Part shown: positions 3,673 to 39,425 of the stretch, in pieces
How positions within the stretch are numbered: the stretch's first letter is position 1
Layout: each line of letters begins with the position of its first letter
Virus record (IMG/VR): IMGVR_UViG_3300037423_002564
Direction: 5' to 3' (one strand)
Source of the DNA: a virus
DNA: 64,000 nt
The notes under the pieces: generated by a model
Database searches by the model: none
Seen by the model: only the letters and a program-made list of their open reading frames with translations
What the model was told of the DNA's origin: nothing
Program-made: the position numbers and the translations under genes

Positions 3673-6600
3673 ATGATCACTGGCACCTATGGCATCTTTC
3701 AGGGCGGCGAGCTGTCTCTCGACACCGCGAACTTCCGCATCAACATCGCCGCCGCGCTGATGCGAGCCGTGTCGGAGCGCCTGATCGGGATGGGCGGTCC
3801 CGGGCGCCGCGTGAGCGTGACCTTCGGCGCCCTGACGCCTGGCTTCGGCTTCAACCGGCCGCGGCTCTCCGCCCTTGACGCGCCGACCTACCAGCTCGCC
3901 ATCGGCCTCCAGGCGGGCGCGGCCTACCTGATCTACGACAGCGAGGTGTCCGACGACATCATGATGGTCGAGACGCCCAACGCCGGCGACATCATCTTCG
4001 GCAAGGTGAGCTGGCCGGTAGGCGCGACCACGATGGCGGACCTCACCCTCGACTTCACGGAGCGCACGGAGACGCGCATCGTGACGGCCGAGGATCCGCT
4101 CTCCGCCAAGGACCTCTACCACAACGGCATGCGCTTCGGCGATGCGAGCTTCAACCAGCCGCTCGCCAGCATGGCGGTCATGAGCGAGTTGCTCCAGGGC
4201 GAGCTGCGGGCGCGCGCGGGCGACAACTTCGCCGTGTCCCTGCTGAAGCGCACCGACATCGTGACGGCGGGCAACCAGCTCACGGTCAAGCGCTTCCCGC
4301 TGTACCTGCGCGACGTGGTCGCCGGCCGTGACGTCTTCAAGGTGATCGACACCAAGGTCGACGCCCTGTTCAACTTCAACGCCGCGGCGATGGCGAACCA
4401 GCGCATCAACATCTTCGTGGACCGCACCACGGGCCAGGTAGATGCCGGCCTGGCCTTCAACGCGGCCACCAAGGTGCTGGTGGCCTTCGGGGATGTGCCG
4501 GCCACGGCCACGAGCCTGGACGACGTCTTCTTCGTGATCGCCGCGGAATTGAGCCAGGCGAACGCCCAGAGCGGCGCCTCGGTCGAGCTGAACCGCCGGG
4601 CGCTGGCCTCGGGCTTCAGCACGCCCACGCAGCTCGTGCCGGTCGTGGGGGTGCCCAACGGCCTGGCCTTGGCGGAGAACATCGTGGAGCTGGCCGGCGT
4701 GCAGGCGCGCGTGGCCCCCCAGCAGGTGGCCCTGCCGGCCGCCCCGAACGCGGGCGATCGCCTCGACCTGCTCTACCTCGAAGTCCACCGCGTGGTCGAG
4801 CCGTCGCCGCCCGCGGACGGCAGCACCTATGTGGTGTTGGGCGGGGTGGGATACCTCGTGACGAAGGTACGTTTAGCGGTCGCCTCCGGCGTCACCTACG
4901 ACACGCCCGAGCGCATGATGGTGCAGGCGCCCGTGGTGGGCCTGGGTGGCGGCGGCTTCGAGGCGGACCCGCAGGGCCACTTCACGAGCCCCTACTTCGC
5001 GGTGGCCTACGACGGCTACTCGTGGGCCGTGCCCGTGGGGCTGGTCTACCGCTTCAACCAGGCGCCGTGGGCGGCCAATAACCTGGCGGGCGGCACGGGC
5101 CGGCCGGACGGCAAGCAGCACGACCAGCTCTCGCCCGACGAGGTCATGAACGTGAGCCCGGTGCTGTCCTTGAAGGGCCTCAACCACCAGGCGCTCCTGC
5201 ACGCCACCATCGACGCGATCCTGAAGGGCCGGCATCCGCATCAGTTCGGCGCGGCCCTGCTCTCGGGCAGCTACCTCTCCAAGACGCCCCTGCACGTCGA
5301 CGCCATCGCACCGACGCCCACGGCCGGAGCGCGCATGCTGGGCACCCCGGACGGCGTGCGCCGGCAGTGGACGGCCCGGCCGCGGCCGTACTGGCTGGGA
5401 GCGAGCTTCCCGGCCAACGCGGACTACGTGGGCAAGAGCGTGGTCTACGAAGACGGCACCCGCACCCTGCTGATCCAGGCGCCCACGGCGGGCTCCTTGA
5501 CCTTGGACAACGATCAGCCCGTGGTCGAGCTGGTCTGGCTGGAGACGGGCGAGGCGGTCGCGCTGACCGGCCCGTGGTCGGTGGGCGCCGACACGCGCAG
5601 CGCCCAGGCCACCCTCGACCCCCTCGACCCCCACTTCCTGCCGGCGGGCACCCTCTCCGCGAGCTTCGAGGTGCTCCAGGACGCGGACAGCTACCTGGGC
5701 GCCGTGCCGGCCCGGGCCTACCGCGCCACCCTCGACAACGCGGACATCGACTTCGCCGCGCCCGGTGCGGAGCGCACCAGCGAGGCGGGTGGCGTGGTGC
5801 GCCGGGTGAGCGCGATCGGCCCCGCCCTCAAGGGTGACGCCATGATCCAAGAGCGCATCTACGCCGCGGACGGCTCCGACAGCATCGCCATCCCCACCGT
5901 GGTGGACGGCCGGGTGGTGCTGGGCGCCGTGACGGTCGACCTCTTGGCCGGCGGCGCCGTGGGCATCCGCACCTTCACCTTGGGGCCGCTGGGCCATGTG
6001 CTGCGCCTGGCCGCGGCGCAGACGGCCGGCACGCAGCTCCGGGTGGCCCTGGCCCTGGGCGGCCGGACGTTCCGCTACGATCCGCGGCATCTGGGCGCCG
6101 ACGAGTTCGCCGAGAGCGCGCTCTTCGAGGCCACCACCACGGGCGCCAAGACGACGCACCATGTGGCCTTGCCGCAGGAGCGCGTGCTCAAGGGCGTGAT
6201 GGGCTACCGGCTCGACCCGGCCCGTCCGCTCACGGCGGGCGTGTACGTTGACGGCCGCCTGTACCAGGCCACCGTCAGCGGGCTGGACCGCAACCTCGCC
6301 ACCATCGAGCTGGCGCTCTCGCTGGCGGAGTACGCGGCCTTGGAAGCCGGTCAGCAGCCCAAGTGGGAGCTGGTGGGCGGCGTGTACCGCCTCGCGGCCG
6401 GCACCTACACCTTGACCCTGCCGCTGCTCTGGAGCGATCCGCCGAAGAGCTTCGAGCACTTCGCGTTCGTCTACGACTTCCAGGCGCTGCCGTTCGTGCC
6501 GCTCCTGGGCGACGAGACCTTCGAGATCGCCCACCACGGCCGCGTGATGATCACCAACTCCAGCGCCGCCAACGACGGCACGGAGCCGTTCGCGCCCGCT

Positions 6601-6918
6601 ACCGAGCGCTTCCCGCTGGTGCGCGGCGATCGCAAGGGCGTCGAGGCGCTGGCGGTGCAGACGATCTTCTCGGACGCCTTGGAGATGGGCCACCGCGCCG
6701 AGGTGCCCTGGGACGGCACGGCCCTCGCCATCGACGGCCGCTTCGTCTTCAACGCCGGCATCTTCGACGCCGGCGCCGGCTTCGTGGTGTGGATGTGCCT
6801 GGTCCGGCAGGGCCGCAACCTGCGCGTGTTCAGCTACATCGTGGAAGGGGAGACGCTCGCGGTCGACACGCCGGCCCGCGCCTTCCTGACCTACCCGCTG
6901 ACGCACGTCGTCGAGTAG
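3673..6918 (+). CDS. Large putative virion structural protein (tail/baseplate), 1081 aa
   Basis: Long ORF with GGAGG RBS, beta-rich; motifs LPAAP..GDRLDLLYLEV and AVPVGLVYRFN..GRPDGK; structural context. Confidence 0.6.
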   Translation: MITGTYGIFQGGELSLDTANFRINIAAALMRAVSERLIGMGGPGRRVSVTFGALTPGFGFNRPRLSALDAPTYQLAIGLQAGAAYLIYDSEVSDDIMMVETPNAGDIIFGKVSWPVGATTMADLTLDFTERTETRIVTAEDPLSAKDLYHNGMRFGDASFNQPLASMAVMSELLQGELRARAGDNFAVSLLKRTDIVTAGNQLTVKRFPLYLRDVVAGRDVFKVIDTKVDALFNFNAAAMANQRINIFVDRTTGQVDAGLAFNAATKVLVAFGDVPATATSLDDVFFVIAAELSQANAQSGASVELNRRALASGFSTPTQLVPVVGVPNGLALAENIVELAGVQARVAPQQVALPAAPNAGDRLDLLYLEVHRVVEPSPPADGSTYVVLGGVGYLVTKVRLAVASGVTYDTPERMMVQAPVVGLGGGGFEADPQGHFTSPYFAVAYDGYSWAVPVGLVYRFNQAPWAANNLAGGTGRPDGKQHDQLSPDEVMNVSPVLSLKGLNHQALLHATIDAILKGRHPHQFGAALLSGSYLSKTPLHVDAIAPTPTAGARMLGTPDGVRRQWTARPRPYWLGASFPANADYVGKSVVYEDGTRTLLIQAPTAGSLTLDNDQPVVELVWLETGEAVALTGPWSVGADTRSAQATLDPLDPHFLPAGTLSASFEVLQDADSYLGAVPARAYRATLDNADIDFAAPGAERTSEAGGVVRRVSAIGPALKGDAMIQERIYAADGSDSIAIPTVVDGRVVLGAVTVDLLAGGAVGIRTFTLGPLGHVLRLAAAQTAGTQLRVALALGGRTFRYDPRHLGADEFAESALFEATTTGAKTTHHVALPQERVLKGVMGYRLDPARPLTAGVYVDGRLYQATVSGLDRNLATIELALSLAEYAALEAGQQPKWELVGGVYRLAAGTYTLTLPLLWSDPPKSFEHFAFVYDFQALPFVPLLGDETFEIAHHGRVMITNSSAANDGTEPFAPATERFPLVRGDRKGVEALAVQTIFSDALEMGHRAEVPWDGTALAIDGRFVFNAGIFDAGAGFVVWMCLVRQGRNLRVFSYIVEGETLAVDTPARAFLTYPLTHVVE

Positions 6919-6930
6919 AAGGGGAGCTTC

Positions 6931-8508
6931 ATGAGCATCATCGGACGTAGCCTTTGGGCCAACCGCGCGGGCTTGCGGGTCGTCGACCTCGACGGCCTCA
7001 CCTTCGCCGCGCGCGTGCCGATCGCCGAGGGCACGCACCCGCCGCTCACCGCGACCGACGACCTGGTCACGGTGGACACCAACGGCCAGACGCTGTTCAC
7101 GCTCGCGACCCCGCCGGAGCCCGGTGCCATCCCGGCCGTGCTGAAGGACGGGCTGGTGTACTTCGAGCCCAGCTTCCGCCTGGCCGACGGCAAGCTCGTG
7201 TGGCAGGGCGCGCAGCTCGGTGCCGGCGAGACCTTCCGCGTGGTCTCCTTCGGGGGCGGCCTGGCCGCGGGCCACATGCGCCTGGAGAAGGTGACGATCA
7301 CCCAGAACGATCAGCGCCGCCTGGTGCTCGACGGCACGCCCGTGGGCCCCCACACCATCGTCTACCACAACGGCAAGGCGTACCCGGTGGCGTCGGGCCA
7401 CGCGCGCACCACCAACAACGTGGTGGACTGGCTGGACCCGCTGGTCAAGCTGAACATCGGCGACCAGGTCTACGTCTACTACGCCCGCACGCTCGAAGCG
7501 GCCAACGACCTGGTGACGCAGACCTTCCCCCTCAACGTCACGAGCAGCCACATCTTGGAGCTGTCCACGGCGCCGACGCCGCCCGAGAACACCGTGCTGA
7601 TGCTCGACGACACCCGCTACACCTACGGGGTGGACTTCACCGTCACGGGCCCCTACCTGATCGTCGACAGCGGCCTGCCGTTCAAGAACGGCCTCACGGC
7701 CACCGTGCAGTTCACCCGCACGGGCGAGCTGACCATCGTGCCCGGCAGCGGCAACGACCAGGACGGCGGCACCACCCCGCCGCCGCCCTCTGGCCTGCCC
7801 GCGATCTTCTTCTCGCGCTCCACGGTGGACGTCACCGCGAACGGCCAGACGGCGCTCTCGCTCGCCAACGCGCCGACCGTGGCCGGCAAGTCCATCGCGG
7901 CCGTGGACGGCCTGGTCTACGTCGAGGGCCACGGCTACACCCGCAGCGGCGCGGCCGTGACCTGGAACGACCCCGACCTGGCGCTCAAGGGCGGCGACAA
8001 GTTCCAGCTCTTCGGCTTCGCGGCGAGCGTCATCGGCAACGCGATCGCAATCCGCGAGCTGACCGGCTTTGCCGGCGGCAACCCCACCTTCGACCTGACG
8101 GAGCCCGCGAGCGGCATCGCCAAGACGCTCCTCGTGGTGTCGGCAGCCGGCACCAACGGCGGCCTGATCTTCTCGGGCGATCAGCTCGCGTTCCCCGACA
8201 ACAGCCACGTGGCCTGGGCGGGTCCGATGCCCATCAAGACCACGGACCGGGTCTTTGCGATCTACTTCAAGAGCGCGGACGTGGCGAACGCGATGCGCCT
8301 GGAGCACCACGTCGTCACCGCGGGCGAGGCCGGCCCGGCCTTCAGCACCGATCTGGCCGCGACCCCGGGCGAGGGCGCGAACCTGTTCGTGATCTTCAAC
8401 GGCTCGCTCCTGGCCCTGGGCCAGAACTTCAGTCTGGCGGGCAAGACCTTCACCTACACGGGCGGCCCGGTGACGGAAGGCGATCGCTTCGCCTTCCTCT
8501 ACCACTAG
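6931..8508 (+). CDS. Putative virion protein with tandem small beta-domain repeats
   Basis: Repeated units such as NGQTLFTL..DGLVY, NGQTALSL..DGLVY, DDTRYTYGVDFT and NGSLLALGQNFS; Pro/Gly linker mid-protein. Confidence 0.6.
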   Translation: MSIIGRSLWANRAGLRVVDLDGLTFAARVPIAEGTHPPLTATDDLVTVDTNGQTLFTLATPPEPGAIPAVLKDGLVYFEPSFRLADGKLVWQGAQLGAGETFRVVSFGGGLAAGHMRLEKVTITQNDQRRLVLDGTPVGPHTIVYHNGKAYPVASGHARTTNNVVDWLDPLVKLNIGDQVYVYYARTLEAANDLVTQTFPLNVTSSHILELSTAPTPPENTVLMLDDTRYTYGVDFTVTGPYLIVDSGLPFKNGLTATVQFTRTGELTIVPGSGNDQDGGTTPPPPSGLPAIFFSRSTVDVTANGQTALSLANAPTVAGKSIAAVDGLVYVEGHGYTRSGAAVTWNDPDLALKGGDKFQLFGFAASVIGNAIAIRELTGFAGGNPTFDLTEPASGIAKTLLVVSAAGTNGGLIFSGDQLAFPDNSHVAWAGPMPIKTTDRVFAIYFKSADVANAMRLEHHVVTAGEAGPAFSTDLAATPGEGANLFVIFNGSLLALGQNFSLAGKTFTYTGGPVTEGDRFAFLYH

Positions 8509-9530
8509 GCCGCGGGCGGACGGCGGTCGAGGACGTAGATGCGCTCCACGATGGTCGTCCGCTCGCTGTACTGGCGCTTGGCGGAGTCGCGGTCGGAGCG
8601 GAAGCGCGGCAGCTCCTCTTCAAACGTAGCAACGTTTCCATATCGTTGCAGCGTCGAGAGGATGTCCTCGTGCGCCATCAGGCCCTCGTCGGAGTAGCTC
8701 AACATGACCACCTTGGCGTCGGCGGCCTGCACGGTCGCATCGAGGGACGCCAGCGCCTGGCGCTTCGAGCACCAGGGGCTCTTCTGGTTCTGGTAGGGGC
8801 GCAGGCCCGTCTTTCCCTTGGGGGTCCAGAGGTGCATGTCGTCGCGCGCGATGGTCTCCAAGATGTGGTAGTTGGGAGCGTACTGCCGGTGGTTGTAGGG
8901 CGGGTCGAGGTACAGCACGTCGACGCCCTGGAACTTGTCCAAGAAGTCGCTGATGTCCATGCAGGTGACGGTGGCCGCGGGCCCGCCGGCGGAGATCAGT
9001 GGCTCCAGCACCAAGGGCTTGCGCGCGCTGGCCTTGACCTTCTTGAGGTAGGCCCCGTAGACCGAGGCGACGTTCGCAACCCTGTCCGCGGCTTGGACCA
9101 GGGAGGCCACCACGGCCGCGCGCTCGAAGACGTTGAGCGGGTGCTCCTCGATGCGGCGGCGGACCGCGGCGATCGCCCGGCCGTTCTCGCGGCTGAAGTA
9201 GAGCCGGCCGCCCGCGCCGCCCTCGCAGTAGGCGTCAAAGAAGGGCGTCGAGTCCCAGCGGGGGTCGGCGAAGGCGGCGCGCGCCTCGGTGTTGAGCTGC
9301 TCGACGAGCCCGGCCATGTCGGTGGTGTGCAGGTGCGCCATGCCCACCGTGTAGCTGAAGTACAAGGAGTCGTTGGCGAGCACGGTCCAGCCAGCGCTCT
9401 GCATGAAGCGGCCCACGGCATGGGTGCCCGCGAAGCCGTCGGCGAAGACACCGGGCTCCATCTCCAAGGAGGCCACGGCCCGGGCCAGCAAGCCGCGTAA
9501 CAACCTATCCTTAGACCCAATGTAATTCAA
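8505..9530 (-). CDS. N6-adenine DNA methyltransferase, D12 class, M.HpyI/M.NlaIII-like
   Basis: TTG start 9530 gives (M)NYIGSK..FADGFAGT..ND..Y; also ADRVANVASVYGAYLK, YLDPPYNHRQYAPNYHILETI, PKGKTGL and LSYSDEGLM. Confidence 0.9.
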   Translation of the reverse strand: MNYIGSKDRLLRGLLARAVASLEMEPGVFADGFAGTHAVGRFMQSAGWTVLANDSLYFSYTVGMAHLHTTDMAGLVEQLNTEARAAFADPRWDSTPFFDAYCEGGAGGRLYFSRENGRAIAAVRRRIEEHPLNVFERAAVVASLVQAADRVANVASVYGAYLKKVKASARKPLVLEPLISAGGPAATVTCMDISDFLDKFQGVDVLYLDPPYNHRQYAPNYHILETIARDDMHLWTPKGKTGLRPYQNQKSPWCSKRQALASLDATVQAADAKVVMLSYSDEGLMAHEDILSTLQRYGNVATFEEELPRFRSDRDSAKRQYSERTTIVERIYVLDRRPPAA

Positions 9531-9544
9531 TTTTAAAAAACCCC

Positions 9545-9574
9545 TTGACAGGTAGGACCGACGTTCGGTAGTAT
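9545..9574 (+). promoter_or_regulatory. Sigma70-type promoter for the candidate ncRNA
   Basis: TTGACA (9545-9550), 18-nt spacer, TAGTAT (9569-9574), with an A/T tract upstream. Confidence 0.7.
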
Positions 9575-9581
9575 AACACTT

Positions 9582-10025
9582 GTCAGGCAGCGATGCCCGA
9601 CGCGGGAGGTCTCCTCCCCGGTGCTCCTGCCCCGCGCAAGCGGAACTGGCCCGGGACTTTGGTGCCCTCCGGCGGTGCGCCCCGCAAGGGGCAACGGCCC
9701 CACGCTTGTCCTCACGGGCTTCGCGGTTCCGCCTCCACCGTCGCCTTGAGGGGTTTGACGCCCCACGCCCTTCGCTTCCGGCTTCCGCCCTCACGGGCTT
9801 CGGCCGACCGGCTCCGGGCCCTGGCCGCCGACCTGAACGGAGTAGCTGCCGTTCCGCCCGCTTCCGTCATGTTGCGGGTCTTACCCGGGTCCCCTCGGGT
9901 AGCCAAGGTCTCTCGCAAGTAACGGGTACGCGCCCCAACCGGACCTCACGGTCCCTGGCCGGCGAATCGACGCCAAGGTCCAGCGAGACAAGCACCCCCG
10001 CCCTCTCACGAGGCGCGGGGGTTCC
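9582..10025 (+). ncRNA. Candidate large structured non-coding RNA, family not recognised
   Basis: No ORF with phage-like codon usage. Dense hairpins with GCGA/GCAA/UCAC loops and several G-U pairs on the + strand. Own promoter upstream, terminal hairpin at 9994-10022. Confidence 0.6.
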
Positions 10026-10037
10026 TGCATCTGGGGC

Positions 10038-10067
10038 TTGCCAGGTGCATCGGTCGTTTGGTAGGAT
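10038..10067 (+). promoter_or_regulatory. Sigma70-type promoter for tmRNA
   Basis: TTGCCA, 18-nt spacer, TAGGAT with TG extension, ending 10 nt before the tmRNA 5' end; 21/30 identical to the 9545 promoter. Confidence 0.7.
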
Positions 10068-10077
10068 GGTCGGGCAT

Positions 10078-10525
10078 GGGGATGTCACGGTTTCGACCGG
10101 GCGTTGATGTGCGAGCCTACCGGCGGGAGCATGAGGACGTTCTCCCTGGGCCTCGGCCCTTTAAAGCAGCCTCGAACCGACAAATGCCAACACCGTTGAC
10201 AATGTCACCCCCGACAACCAGGCTGTGGGCCTGAACGCCCAGACCGAGGCTCTGAACCGCCTCGCTGGCTTCAACACCCCCGCTCTGGTCTAGGGACCAC
10301 TGCCGCCCCGGCCTCCTTGGGGCGAGCGGTCACTCAAGGGAGGTGCCGACGGGCAAGCCGTCCGACTGCCGGGGAAGTCCGGCTCGTTGGTCAGAGACCT
10401 GTGGGTGGTCGCTACGGCCGCCGGGCGACACCGTCTGCCTCCGCATGGGAATGACGGAATGACCGGTAAATAAAGGCTTTCAGGTCTATGTTCGGGACGC
10501 GGGTTCAATTCCCGCCATCTCCACC
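10078..10525 (+). ncRNA. ssrA: tmRNA (transfer-messenger RNA)
   Basis: 5' GGGGATGTCACGGTTTCGAC; 3' T-arm GCGGG-TTCAATT-CCCGC; acceptor CATCTCC-A-CC pairs with GGGGATG including G3-U (Ala identity). Tag frame 10186-10293. Confidence 0.93.
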
Positions 10526-10552
10526 TCACGTGACCCTGACAGGAGCCACGAG

Positions 10553-10593
10553 CACGAAACCCCCGGGGCCGCCATGCTCCCGGGGGTTTCGTG
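10553..10593. terminator. Hairpin terminator between convergent tmRNA and phoH
   Basis: 15-bp perfect stem CACGAAACCCCCGGG / CCCGGGGGTTTCGTG. Confidence 0.75.
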
Positions 10594-10596
10594 TGT

Positions 10597-11271
10597 CTAG
10601 TCCTGGTAGCAGGCGATGATGTCCTTGACGAGCTGCGATCGCACCACGTCCTCGCCGGAGAACTCGATGATGGCGATGTTGCCCCTGTTGGCGAAGCGGC
10701 CCACGTCGAAGTAGGCGCTCTGCTTGCTCGGCGGCAGGTCCACCTGGCTGGGGTCCATCGTCACGATCATCGTCGTGTTCTCGCCGGCGCGGGTGAGCGC
10801 GGTCTTGAGCTGGTCCGGGGTGGCGTTCTGCATCTCGTCGTAGATGCAGACCGTGTCGTGGTAGGTCTCGCCGCGCAGGAAGGTGGGGCTGACCACCTCG
10901 ATCACCTTGCGGTTGATGAACTCCGGCAGCTTGCCCGGCGGCAGGAAGAGGTTCAGCGCCTTCATCAGGGGCCGCATGTAGGGGTCCATCTTCTGCTTCT
11001 CGTCGCCGGGCAGGGCGCCGATCGACTCGCCGCTCTCCACGGGCGGGCGCGAGAGGATCACCTGGCGCGCGGTCTTGTTGTTGAGGCGCCGCGTGGCGTA
11101 CCAGGCGGCGATCATGGTCTTACCCGTGCCGGCGGGGCCGATCAGGAAGACGAGCTGGCACCGATCCAAGGCGGCCAGGGCGGCGCGCTGGGCGTCCGTG
11201 CGGGGGTGGAAGTCCCCCATGGCCGGCTCCGGCTTCGCCTTGGGGGACTTCTTCTGCTGGGGCTTGCTCAT
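10597..11271 (-). CDS. phoH: PhoH-family ATPase
   Basis: GPAGTGKT Walker A, LSRP, IGALPG, DPYMRP, FLRGET, DEMQN, LTRAGEN, SQVDL, DVVRS. Confidence 0.95.
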   Translation of the reverse strand: MSKPQQKKSPKAKPEPAMGDFHPRTDAQRAALAALDRCQLVFLIGPAGTGKTMIAAWYATRRLNNKTARQVILSRPPVESGESIGALPGDEKQKMDPYMRPLMKALNLFLPPGKLPEFINRKVIEVVSPTFLRGETYHDTVCIYDEMQNATPDQLKTALTRAGENTTMIVTMDPSQVDLPPSKQSAYFDVGRFANRGNIAIIEFSGEDVVRSQLVKDIIACYQD

Positions 11272-11280
11272 GACGCCTTC

Positions 11281-13311
11281 CTATGTGGGGGATCCGCCCT
11301 GCCTGCGGGGCGGCTTCTGCTCGGGCATGTTCTTCTCGACCTTGCCGCCGCCCGGGGGCTGCTGCGCCTGGCCGCCGCCGCCCAGGCCCATGACGCTGTC
11401 GATGCCGAAGTTTCGCGCGAGGGTCGCGAGGATCAGGCCCTGCACCGGGCTGTTCCGGGCGACCTGCTCCATCGTGGACTGCTGGTCCTGCGGGCTCATG
11501 GCGAGCAGCATCTGGATCTGCTTGCCGTAGGTCGTCTTGTCGGTGGCCGCCCGCGCCGACAGCTCGCGCCCGATGTCGGGGTTGGCCGCCCCGATCTGCT
11601 GGACCGCCATGGCCTGCTGGTTGGGGTCCTGGATGGTCTGCAAGCCCTGGAAGACCTGGTCGACCATGTTCGGGTCCACCGCGGGCATCGTGTTGAGCAG
11701 CTCGGGCGCCAGCACGTTCTGCAAGAGGGCCTGGATGACCATCATCTCGTTCGCGGCCTGGGCCTGGGCCTTGGCGTCGGCCACGGCCTGGCTGATGTTC
11801 TCCTGCGTGCGCTTCTTGCGCTCCTGGGCGTAGTCGAACTCGAACCACTCGCCCAGCTTCTCGCCGGAGACGGCCTGCATCTGCCAGAGCTGCAAGATGA
11901 GCTGCTTGGCCTGCACGTCGTCCGCCATCTTGAACTTGCGCAGGTCGCAGTCCACGTACTCCATCTTCGTGATCTGGCTGATGCGCCGCGTGATCCACTT
12001 GAAGCACTTGATGACCTGCTCGACCTGGTTCATGAGCGTGTTTTCGAGCATCCGCAAGGAAACGGAGCTACCCGTGTAGGTCAAGCCGCCGCGCAGGAAC
12101 TCCTGCGGCACGTTCAGGCCGTTGATGATGTTGGTCTCGACCATCTCCATCTCGGCGAACAGCATCAGCGCCTTGCCGTCGCCGCCCATGCGGCCCTCGC
12201 CGACGGGCACGGGCGTGAGCATGATGTAGAGCGGGTCCCGCTTCCAGCGCGCCACCTCGGACTCCATCTGGGAGCGCCAGTCGGCCAGGTCCATCGGGAT
12301 CGTGGTGCCGCTGCCGACGTCGGTGGCCGGGTACAGGTAGCGGAAGGGGATGATGTGCTCCAAGAGCAGCGCGAGCTGCGCGCGCTTCATCATGTTGATG
12401 TAGAAGATCTCGCGCAGCACGCTCACCGTGATGGGCATGCCCCAGGGGTTCTCGACGCCCGGGCTCGACGCGCTGTGGCGCGTGAGGTGGAAGATGCTGC
12501 CGCGGGTCAGCTTGACCTTCGGGTTGTCCTCCTTGCGGTTGTTCTTGTGCTCGCGGACGGCCTCGATGACGACCCAGGGGGTCTTCTCCAGCATCAAGGG
12601 GTTGCCCTTCTTGATCTTCTCCGCCTGCTCGTCGGGCACGTTGTAGTAGTACTCCTTGGAGCCGGAGTACGGGTCGAACTCGATGTCGATGTTGCCGGGG
12701 TGGAAGCGGATCAGGTTGATGCGCGTCGGGTCGGCCACGGGCTTGTCCTTGACGCGCGCGTAGCCCTTGAACTGGCACTTCCAGCACTTGATCTTGAAGG
12801 CCAGGCGCCCGGAGTCCCACTCCCACTTCACCTTGGTCATGATGTGGTTCTCGCGGCAGTCCTCGTTGCCGCAGATCAGCACGCGGTCGAACGGCGCGTA
12901 CACGCTCGCGAAGGCGTTGCCGTACAGGTAGAAGTCCATCGACAGGCCCACGGCGAAGCCCTTGGCCTGGAGGTGGGTCTCGTAAATTTCCTCCCAGCGG
13001 TCGATCACGCTCTCACGCTGCTTGTAGGCGTCCTTGTACTCCTTGGAGTCCTCGGGCTCGCGGATGATCGGGCTGAAGGTGAACTCCGTGATGGGGTACT
13101 CCGACAGCTTCTCGATGGCGCTGTTCACCACCGGGTTGGTCAGGAAGGTCTGGTAGCTGAACCGGAACAGCTCCTTGGTGGTGCTGGGCAGGTAGAAGCT
13201 CTCGATGTGGAAGAAGGGGCTCTGGCGCAGCATCGTCTGCTGAAGCGCGGCCGAACCACCTCCGATCATCTGGAGGTCGCCCATCGTGTCGTCCCACGGG
13301 TGGTTGAACAT
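11281..13311 (-). CDS. Putative portal protein with Cys-rich (zinc-ribbon-like) segment
   Basis: NPVVNSAIEKLSEYP, MDFYLYGNAF, IFHL..PWGMP, IINGLNVPQEFL resemble portal motifs; CGNEDC...CWKC segment; Q-rich C-terminus. Confidence 0.7.
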   Translation of the reverse strand: MFNHPWDDTMGDLQMIGGGSAALQQTMLRQSPFFHIESFYLPSTTKELFRFSYQTFLTNPVVNSAIEKLSEYPITEFTFSPIIREPEDSKEYKDAYKQRESVIDRWEEIYETHLQAKGFAVGLSMDFYLYGNAFASVYAPFDRVLICGNEDCRENHIMTKVKWEWDSGRLAFKIKCWKCQFKGYARVKDKPVADPTRINLIRFHPGNIDIEFDPYSGSKEYYYNVPDEQAEKIKKGNPLMLEKTPWVVIEAVREHKNNRKEDNPKVKLTRGSIFHLTRHSASSPGVENPWGMPITVSVLREIFYINMMKRAQLALLLEHIIPFRYLYPATDVGSGTTIPMDLADWRSQMESEVARWKRDPLYIMLTPVPVGEGRMGGDGKALMLFAEMEMVETNIINGLNVPQEFLRGGLTYTGSSVSLRMLENTLMNQVEQVIKCFKWITRRISQITKMEYVDCDLRKFKMADDVQAKQLILQLWQMQAVSGEKLGEWFEFDYAQERKKRTQENISQAVADAKAQAQAANEMMVIQALLQNVLAPELLNTMPAVDPNMVDQVFQGLQTIQDPNQQAMAVQQIGAANPDIGRELSARAATDKTTYGKQIQMLLAMSPQDQQSTMEQVARNSPVQGLILATLARNFGIDSVMGLGGGGQAQQPPGGGKVEKNMPEQKPPRRQGGSPT

Positions 13312-13314
13312 CGC

Positions 13315-14055
13315 CTACACCTTCTTCAGTTCGTCGTGGAGCTGCTGGTGGCGCGCGTTGACGTAGGCCATCACCTCCGCGATGCGGTCGCGCTGCACCG
13401 CCGTCTCCGCATCGGTTGCGCCCGCGGCGTGCCGGCGGGCCACCGCCTGGCCGTAGTCGCTCGTCAGGACCGAGAGCCCGTCCGCGGCGAAGGCGAGGGG
13501 AGCGGGAGCCACCACGAAGCCCGCATCGTGCAGCAGGCCAGCGATGTAGGCCGCCACTTCGTGACCCCAGGGGGTAGCTTCGTCGATGTATCGCATCGCG
13601 TCCGCGGCCCAGGCCAGCTCCGGCACGGAGAGATCCTGGGTGTGGTCGAAACGCAGCTCGCGGTCGTTCAGGGCGACGGCGACCTTCTCGAAGACGTGCC
13701 AGTGCTCGAACGGCGCGGTGTCGTAGAGCACGATCTGCGCGGCCTTGAGCTTGGCGACCTCCTCGTGGCTGAAGCCCAGGTCCACGAGCGCCTCGACGTC
13801 GTAGTCCACGAAGTCGGCGCCGACCTGCCGCTCGGCCAGGATGGCGAGCGTGATCGCCGCGCGCGGCCGGGCTGCCTCCTTGACCGGGGGGTCCAGGGCC
13901 TTGAGGCCATGCACCAGGAGCTTCGCGCCCACGCGCTCGACCGCCTGCCGAGGCGTGGCGCTCTCGGTGGCGTCGGCAAGCGACTTCAAGGTCGAGACGA
14001 CGGTGCGGACATGGGCCTCGCGCTCGTCGTCATGCGTGGGCACGACGGGGTCCAT
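13315..14055 (-). CDS. Hypothetical protein (head module)
   Basis: Tightly packed ORF upstream of the portal with phage-like codon usage. Confidence 0.7.
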   Translation of the reverse strand: MDPVVPTHDDEREAHVRTVVSTLKSLADATESATPRQAVERVGAKLLVHGLKALDPPVKEAARPRAAITLAILAERQVGADFVDYDVEALVDLGFSHEEVAKLKAAQIVLYDTAPFEHWHVFEKVAVALNDRELRFDHTQDLSVPELAWAADAMRYIDEATPWGHEVAAYIAGLLHDAGFVVAPAPLAFAADGLSVLTSDYGQAVARRHAAGATDAETAVQRDRIAEVMAYVNARHQQLHDELKKV

Positions 14056-38561: not shown

Positions 38562-39425
38562 ATGCTGTACATGACCAAGGCCGCCGCCTGGACCGCCGGC
38601 CACAAGATCACCCTGGGGCTCGCCGACCTGGTGGGCCTGCGCATCACCCGCAACGTCTGCCACGACGTGTACGCCCGCTACCGCAGCCGCCACGGCCGAC
38701 CGGAGGGCCACCAGTGCATCGGCCACCAGGCCGTGCGGCACGAGCGCGAGGCCCTCACCGGCCGCGGCTACATCATCGACCGGGTCGAGCGCCGCTGCTG
38801 GATCTCCATCCAGCCCGTCACCGGCGACGACCGCGAGTGGCCCGGCTTCTGCCTGACCCAGGCGGAGTGGGCGCAGTTCTGGCGCGGCGAGGTGACGCGC
38901 GTCTCCACCGAGCCGATGGGCGACGTCGACCGCGCCTACGCGAGCTACCACTGGCGCGGCTTGGAGTTCGAGATGCTGGACTACAGCGGCACGTTCCGCC
39001 GGCTGCGCCTGGAGGTGCCGCGCGAGCTGGTGCAGGCTGCCATCGGCAAGGTCATGACCCTGGGCTACGGCGATCGCTACGGCCGCAACACCACGCGGCT
39101 CGTGCCCATCACGGAGCGCCACAAGGCGTTCTGGTCGCCTAATGCGCGCATCGTCTGGGAAGGCGAGGTCTACGACGCCTACCAGGCGCGCAAGGACTGG
39201 GCGGCGGGCTACGCCGGCAGCGACCGCACGCTGGCCGACCTGATCGAGGACAAGCTCCAGCAGGCCCGCAACCGCAGCCGCAGCCAGGCCGACAGCTACT
39301 CCGTCCACGTCCACTGGGAGAAGCCCAACAACTTCGTCTGGACGATCCTGCGTGACCGGGACAATGCCTTCGTGTACAACGGTGGCCTGATCTGGCGCGG
39401 CGACCACTATAGCTCCCACACGTAA
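38562..39425 (+). CDS. Hypothetical protein
   Basis: ATG after AAAGGAG; C-terminal YNGGLIW...YSSHT. Confidence 0.7.
   Translation: MLYMTKAAAWTAGHKITLGLADLVGLRITRNVCHDVYARYRSRHGRPEGHQCIGHQAVRHEREALTGRGYIIDRVERRCWISIQPVTGDDREWPGFCLTQAEWAQFWRGEVTRVSTEPMGDVDRAYASYHWRGLEFEMLDYSGTFRRLRLEVPRELVQAAIGKVMTLGYGDRYGRNTTRLVPITERHKAFWSPNARIVWEGEVYDAYQARKDWAAGYAGSDRTLADLIEDKLQQARNRSRSQADSYSVHVHWEKPNNFVWTILRDRDNAFVYNGGLIWRGDHYSSHT

Follow-up and report, generated by a model that had tools for sequence, protein, structure and literature searches.

The locus belongs to a virus recorded in IMG/VR as IMGVR_UViG_3300037423_002564, a 203,733-bp (203.7 kb) record of 67.6% G+C with direct terminal repeats, and the whole stretch of 64,000 nucleotides analysed here, hereafter the window, corresponds to its positions 114867-178866. 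Between a divergently oriented methyltransferase gene and a convergent PhoH-like gene, a predicted structured RNA precedes a tmRNA on the plus strand, and each of the two has a promoter of its own.

8505-9461, minus strand: Dam-type (D12 class) N6-adenine DNA methyltransferase gene (PF02086, E 7e-25; GC3 0.94), divergent from the RNA and used as a synteny anchor
9519-9544, plus strand: A+T-rich stretch just 5' of the -35 hexamer, a candidate UP element that also lies inside the divergent Dam promoter region
9545-9550 and 9569-9574, plus strand: promoter hexamers of the RNA, TTGACA-N18-TAGTAT
9578-10030, plus strand: predicted structured RNA transcript of about 450 nt, its start placed from the -10 hexamer and its end from the terminal hairpin
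9994-10022, plus strand: G+C-rich terminal stem-loop, a presumed intrinsic terminator with a weak tail (UUCCUGCAU)
10038-10067, plus strand: tmRNA promoter TTGCCA-N18-TAGGAT with a TG before the -10 hexamer, separate from the RNA promoter
10078-10526, plus strand: tmRNA with a long tag reading frame (RF00023, 72 bits), a neighbour outside the new RNA
10597-11271, minus strand: PhoH-like ATPase gene (PF02562, E 2e-60), convergent with the RNA and the tmRNA, the second synteny anchor
11281-13311, minus strand: portal-like gene, next after the PhoH-like gene

The eight DNA runs that contain this stretch are soil and rhizosphere metagenomes, and four of them yielded no haplotype beyond the two known ones. 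The tmRNA is the sole Rfam RNA gene match in the window, where the scan covered 9300-10700; ARAGORN returned no match in the window and counted no tRNA genes in the whole phage genome.

The promoter pointing into the stretch was confirmed on the plus strand with 10 of 12 consensus matches, and the surrounding 1.4 kb holds two sigma-70-like sites (9545-9574 and 10038-10067) against 0.0 expected from shuffles. At the other end, no canonical T-run follows the terminal stem of the window, so that the T-run rule failed here and read-through into the tmRNA is therefore possible.

The original prediction saw no credible open reading frame in the stretch, and codon-position statistics agree, since GC content is flat across the three positions (0.64-0.75), against a GC3 of 0.94-0.98 and a GC2 of 0.38-0.46 in the flanking Dam, PhoH and portal genes. 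It is exceedingly improbable that the stretch encodes one or more small proteins: mechanical plus-strand ORFs of 109 and 175 amino acids are present, but a Pfam search of the ORFs of the stretch gave no match and their translation is not conserved between the homologous loci described below, a six-frame comparison of the window with one of them (L195) returning only one short stretch, identical at the DNA level. The indels between homologues, often of 1-2 nt, break the frame as well, and the ATG at 9593 has no Shine-Dalgarno sequence ahead of it and falls within hairpin P2.

The Dam-PhoH slot in related phages

Contigs with the same gene order were reached by portal and Dam protein searches. 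A unit homologous to the RNA occupies the PhoH-Dam gap in three other uncultured phage lineages, L209, L211 and L195, whose Dam proteins are 71%, 58% and 47% identical to that of the window, respectively (portal 58% in L195), and it is conserved there as a non-coding unit. The four RNAs measure 456, 476, 388 and 428 nt. Compared with the window, the homologues are 57-77% identical over the 5' part, 48-63% over the middle and 58-71% over the 3' domain. The similarity is mosaic, with L209 nearest in the 5' part and L211 nearest in the 3' domain, and a single-sequence nhmmer comparison of the window with L195 gave no match in either direction. A near-identical contig (L002/L003) was also found, 98.7% identical over 8.7 kb with three substitutions in the RNA, one of which (in L002) turns a C-G pair of helix H11 into U-G, a change tolerated on the plus strand only.

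The signals at both ends of the RNA recur in the homologues. The promoter reads TTGACG-N18-TAGTAT in L209, TTGACG-N17-TAGTAT in L211 and TTGACC-N17-TATAGT in L195, the A+T-rich run before it is also found in L209 and L211, and AACACTTGTC is the start sequence common to the window, L209 and L211. All four RNAs terminate in a G+C-rich hairpin, and U-rich tails are clear in L211 (UUUUUGCAU) and L195 (UUUCUGCUUUUUU). Own promoter and own terminator, the marks of an independent bacterial-type RNA gene, are hence present in the window, with a weak tail, and kept in the homologues.

The arrangement in tandem with a tmRNA, noted originally, holds for the window and for L211, in both of which 48 nt separate the RNA from the tmRNA (99 bits in L211), but it is not obligatory. 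In L209 the RNA is followed by an HNH gene and in L195 by another, roughly 200-nt unit that has a -10 box and a terminator of its own, the tmRNA being absent from both, while the slot of L205 holds a 54-codon ORF and a tmRNA without the RNA.

These arrangements bear on whether the RNA could belong to the phage tmRNA transcript, as a long leader or precursor segment at its 5' end that is co-transcribed and processed but lacks its own function. The 48-nt spacing in the window and L211 and the missing T-run of the window terminator are what such a leader would show. Against it, the tmRNA has its own promoter, the RNA of L211 and L195 is closed by a good U-rich tail, L205 carries a tmRNA without the RNA, and the RNA persists in L209 and L195, promoter and terminator included, in the absence of a tmRNA. 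Because two homologous loci lack the tmRNA, the RNA is independent of it, and the leader reading is very improbable. The TAGGAT box downstream of the RNA is also present in L209 and L195, though the tmRNA is absent there.

The slot varies further among relatives. It is empty in L027, and a complete 208-kb relative (G004) has neither the new RNA nor a tmRNA; the contigs L197, L204, L220 and L342 stop short of it. In L202, whose portal is 54% identical, the slot (12840-13400, minus strand) was read by eye as a TTGACA...TAGCAT promoter followed by tRNA-like genes; the leading gene resembles, again by eye, a tRNA-Met of the elongator or initiator type (CAT anticodon). Since its content ranges from the RNA, tRNAs or a tmRNA to nothing, the slot amounts to a variable island of RNA genes, and the RNA is accessory within a narrow clade.

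Several observations on the neighbourhood were made in passing. HNH_3 homing-endonuclease genes adjoin the slot in the P0006 contig and in L209, where the gene (8611-9141) takes the place of the tmRNA. Insertions of this kind agree with an island prone to recombination and with the mosaic resemblance of the 5' and 3' parts of the RNA. A 91,681-nt Logan contig of SRR22388175 leaves 566 nt free of genes at the corresponding place, flanked by the HNH gene after PhoH and by three small ORFs upstream of Dam. The unit that replaces the tmRNA in L195 (12890-13120, minus strand) combines a TAGGAT -10 box with a strong terminator, whose stem (GCGGGGCC/GGCCCCGC) precedes a T-rich tail; it matched nothing in Rfam at E<=1 and may represent either a further small RNA or a small open reading frame. 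A 1210-codon ORF at 4873-8505 (minus strand) is a shadow frame (GC1 0.96, GC3 0.67), and the gene order shared with L195, L209 and L211 suggests instead a plus-strand gene of about 505-525 codons at 6931-8508, convergent with Dam.

Between two strains that are 98.7% identical over 8.7 kb, a 90-nt part of the tmRNA tag frame (10202-10291) accounts for 39 of the 46 differences listed for 9400-10650, indels included, and the upstream RNA for only three. An alternative tag allele in a contig of run X4 replaces 77 letters by 84, and tags of about 30-37 codons occur in the window, L002, L211 and L205. As the changes are not confined to adenines, the variation looks like a cassette swap rather than the work of a diversity-generating retroelement.

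Predicted secondary structure and its conservation

Comparison of the four sequences gave a model of 17 helices, in which a variable middle would separate a 5' domain from a conserved 3' domain of two lobes. The domains and helices, all on the plus strand, are as follows.

9582-9743, plus strand: 5' domain, from hand-curated comparison, with helices P2, P3, H4, H5 and P6
9582-9589/9594-9601: P2, with a GNRA loop
9603-9609/9666-9672: P3, two compensatory columns
9626-9635/9640-9649: H4, with a GCAA loop
9679-9683/9688-9692: H5, with a GCAA loop and one compensatory column
9670-9677/9736-9743: P6, two compensatory columns
9744-9829, plus strand: variable central region with helices H7 and H8
9750-9754/9760-9764: H7, three compensatory columns
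9780-9783/9802-9805 and 9787-9790/9795-9798: H8, a two-part hairpin with five compensatory columns
9830-9988, plus strand: conserved 3' domain of two lobes, the basis of the covariance model R1
9830-9834/9906-9910: P8, enclosing H9, H10 and H11
9835-9840/9849-9854: H9
9856-9861/9874-9879: H10
9881-9889/9894-9902: H11
9911-9916/9983-9988: Py, enclosing H13, H14 and P15
9924-9927/9932-9935: H13
9941-9945/9950-9954: H14, compensatory at all five columns
9957-9964/9971-9980: P15, carrying the invariant block GGCGAAUYGACGCCAAG

The hairpins picked out in the original prediction exist, and most of them are retained in the comparative model: GTCAGGCA-GCGA-TGCCCGAC as P2, GCCCC-GCAA-GGGGC as H5, GCCC-TCAC-GGGC as H8, GAACGG/CCGTTC as H9, CCCGC/GCGGG as H10, TACCCGGG/CTCGGGTA as H11, GGACC-TCAC-GGTCC as H14 and the long-range pair TCTCGC/GCGAGA as Py, together with the terminal stem at 9994-10022. 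An exception is the local hairpin GGGAGG/CCTCCC, which is missing from L211 and probably replaced by the distal helix P3, chosen by the independent minimum-energy folds of both L209 and L211. GNRA loops recur on P2 (GCGA, GCGA and GUGA), the boundary of P3 and P6 overlaps by 1-2 nt depending on the sequence, and in the middle region long-range pairings compete, P6 against a long-range alternative. Three further pairings were dropped: one of 11 bp at 79-89/328-338 in the minimum-energy fold of the window, which is not conserved; a helix CUUGUC/GACAAG closing the 5' and 3' ends, which is broken in L209; and one of 17 bp in L195 between a 5' hairpin loop and the P15 block, which is lineage-specific.

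The best-supported helices are P8, Py, H9, H10 and H14. The five pairs of P8 change as G-C, A-U/G-C, C-G/G-C/U-A, C-G and U-A/C-G, and Py pairs UCUCGC with GCGAGA in the window and GCAGGG with CCCUGC in L195. The lobes closed by these two helices also recur in independent minimum-energy folds of L209 and L211. The excess of G-U pairs over A-C cells, 22 to 5, agrees with the plus strand, on which the promoter also lies.

A covariance model of the 3' domain (R1; 9830-9988, 48 pairs), built from the window and its near-identical variant only, recovered L211 (79.1 bits, E 9e-19) and L195 (22.4 bits, E 7e-4). In the resulting three-sequence alignment, which was fitted to the structure of the model, 96.1% of the cells pair and 17 of the 48 pairs are compensatory. 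None of 500 shuffles reached these values, and sliding the partners by 1-3 columns left 0-3 compensatory pairs and lowered pairing to 30-51%. Because the alignment was fitted to the model, the figures lean towards the structure, yet the gap to the controls remains large. For the full model, 97.2% of the cells at 99 pair columns are standard pairs and 44 of the 99 columns are compensatory, against 7-12 when slid, in an alignment made by hand to maximise pairing and with four distinct sequences, fewer than a formal covariation test (R-scape) needs. Substitutions between homologues therefore preserve pairs above the level of the controls, on three to four sequences with structure-leaning alignments. 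Neither R1 nor R2 aligned the 3' domain of L209 as one match, and since R2 recovers no single match its assignment follows manual reading and the minimum-energy fold of L209 itself. MAFFT with RNAalifold misaligned the hairpins, whether whole RNAs or the 3' domain was used.

Folding energies were compared with those of dinucleotide shuffles, a check proposed with the original prediction, and all four RNAs are more stable than these, the window by a modest margin (z -2.25 on the plus strand and -1.37 on the minus strand) and the homologues by a clearer one (z -2.82, -3.11 and -3.24). The z-score of the window alone is not convincing as evidence for a structured RNA.

These results can be weighed against the view that the stretch is a non-functional G+C-rich spacer or decaying DNA, for example a mobile-element remnant beside HNH genes, whose hairpins arose by chance. 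G+C-rich sequence does fold well by chance, shuffles of the window still reaching -207 kcal/mol; HNH genes adjoin the slot in two of the contigs; and the family is rare, R2 finding no match in 45 related IMG/VR viral records. Against this view, hairpins persist despite complete sequence change, as in H14 where every column is compensatory, pairing drops to 30-51% in the slid controls, and lineages with Dam proteins only 47-71% identical have retained promoter, start sequence and terminator alike. The gene is, moreover, single-copy in its own genome. A mere spacer is thus improbable, and we consider it likely that 9578-10030 (plus strand) is a real structured non-coding RNA gene of a new family.

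The suggestion that repeated loops mediate multivalent protein binding found no support in the comparison. The four UCAC loops and both repeats, CCTCACGGGCTTCG (exactly twice, at 9710 in the 5' domain and 9789 in the central region) and GCCAAGGTC (at 9902 and 9972), are present in the window, but they are conserved in none of the homologues, where the loop of H8 is UCCG or CUCG and that of H14 is CUUCAUCC, GCAA or UUCCC. Multivalent binding through these elements is unsupported because they are private to one phage.

Relation to known RNAs and possible roles

The stretch 9545-10030 was run through cmscan, as had been recommended, and matched none of the 4227 models of Rfam 15 at the gathering score or at E<=10; the homologous loci examined (L211, L210 and L196) gave no match at E<=1. 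The earlier failure to recognise GOLLD, ROOL, RNase P, SRP or 6S RNA was upheld by the negative results of the Rfam models, and the group I and II intron models found nothing in the window or the homologous loci. A link to Ro60 and Y RNA was rejected, as the 203.7-kb phage genome has no Ro60 (TROVE) gene; the Y RNA model found no match in the window.

Further searches added no homologue to those above. Blastn of the RNA against 50,697 GenBank phages gave no match, nor did blastn and a tmRNA model search in five related IMG/VR records. Pattern scans of IMG/VR with GGCGAATCGACGCCAAGG and TAGTATAACACTTGTC returned the near-identical contig only, plus chance matches in coding or A+T-rich DNA. A scan of genome contigs with GGCGAATYGACGCCAAG gave at least 120 matches, about the chance rate; R2 scored all 100 of those submitted to it as weak, the top five falling within open frames of 152-446 codons. 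R2 likewise had no match in 302 sampled bacterial genomes, 151 from each of two phyla. So far, the family has turned up only within a small clade of jumbo phages, high in G+C and from soil and rhizosphere. Elsewhere in the window, R1 gave a weak match at 39222-39311 on the minus strand (11 bits, E 0.6) that has GGACGGAGUAGCUG in common with H9 and is probably due to chance.

Large structured RNAs of no known function are rare, and earlier cases were eventually recognised as ribozymes, as cores of ribonucleoproteins or, most recently, as cages made of RNA only. ROOL has a length of about 580 nt. GOLLD (>800 nt) and ROOL are large ornate RNAs of phages and prophages that assemble into RNA-only nanocages as seen by cryo-EM, their roles being not yet known (PMC12286853). 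Like them, the new RNA is phage-encoded, large and rich in hairpins, and it lies in a slot of the kind that often holds tRNA-type genes, namely a tmRNA here and, as read by eye, tRNAs in L202. In contrast to them, it comes from high-G+C soil jumbo phages, is known here from sequence alone and is shorter, with another layout of helices and no sequence or Rfam profile match.

This context, phage-borne, beside tRNA-type genes and with a conserved 3' and a variable 5' part as in GOLLD and ROOL (PMC12286853), would also suit an RNA that belongs to one of the known large families (GOLLD, ROOL, RNase P RNA, 6S, SRP, Y RNA or a group I/II intron) but has diverged beyond the reach of the Rfam models. 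That no model matched even at the permissive thresholds used in the window and the three homologous loci argues against this, as do the size (388-476 nt) and helix layout, the lack of a TROVE/Ro60 gene in the phage and the failure to see by eye the conserved core motifs of RNase P. A hidden member of a known family is quite improbable. The proposal of a possible new large ncRNA class holds, because no Rfam family accounts for the RNA and the substitutions of its homologues preserve base pairs.

The tmRNA (RF00023) is the nearest known RNA in setting, being of similar size, on the same strand, behind its own sigma-70 promoter and in the same slot. The new RNA differs in that it has neither tRNA-like ends nor a tag frame, gives no match to the tmRNA model, which matches 10078-10526 alone, and occurs without a tmRNA in L209 and L195.

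The unit is probably transcribed and would act in trans as a folded RNA. Its host-type sigma-70 promoter with an A+T-rich upstream run suggests that it would be read early, by unmodified host RNA polymerase, and the transcript would end at its own stem-loop. It would sit in an RNA-gene slot between Dam and PhoH in which relatives have tRNAs or a tmRNA. By analogy with GOLLD and ROOL, it may tentatively be assigned a role as scaffold for, or partner of, either a protein or the translation apparatus. A more speculative and rather unlikely extension would make it a third independent class of ornate phage RNA, whose 3' domain would self-assemble or dock on the host translation machinery and whose variable 5' and middle parts would be a lineage-specific payload; this would account for the place of the RNA in the tRNA/tmRNA slot. 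It is also conceivable that the conserved 3' domain is catalytic.

With this RNA, the high-G+C jumbo phages of soil, for which few RNAs have been described, gain an independent family. Its predicted boundaries are clear, its promoter should suit common laboratory bacteria, and its conserved 3' domain, of about 160 nt, is compact and suited to probing or cryo-EM. Since the slot of its relatives holds tRNAs or a tmRNA, the RNA may be another route by which phages reach host translation or RNA metabolism.
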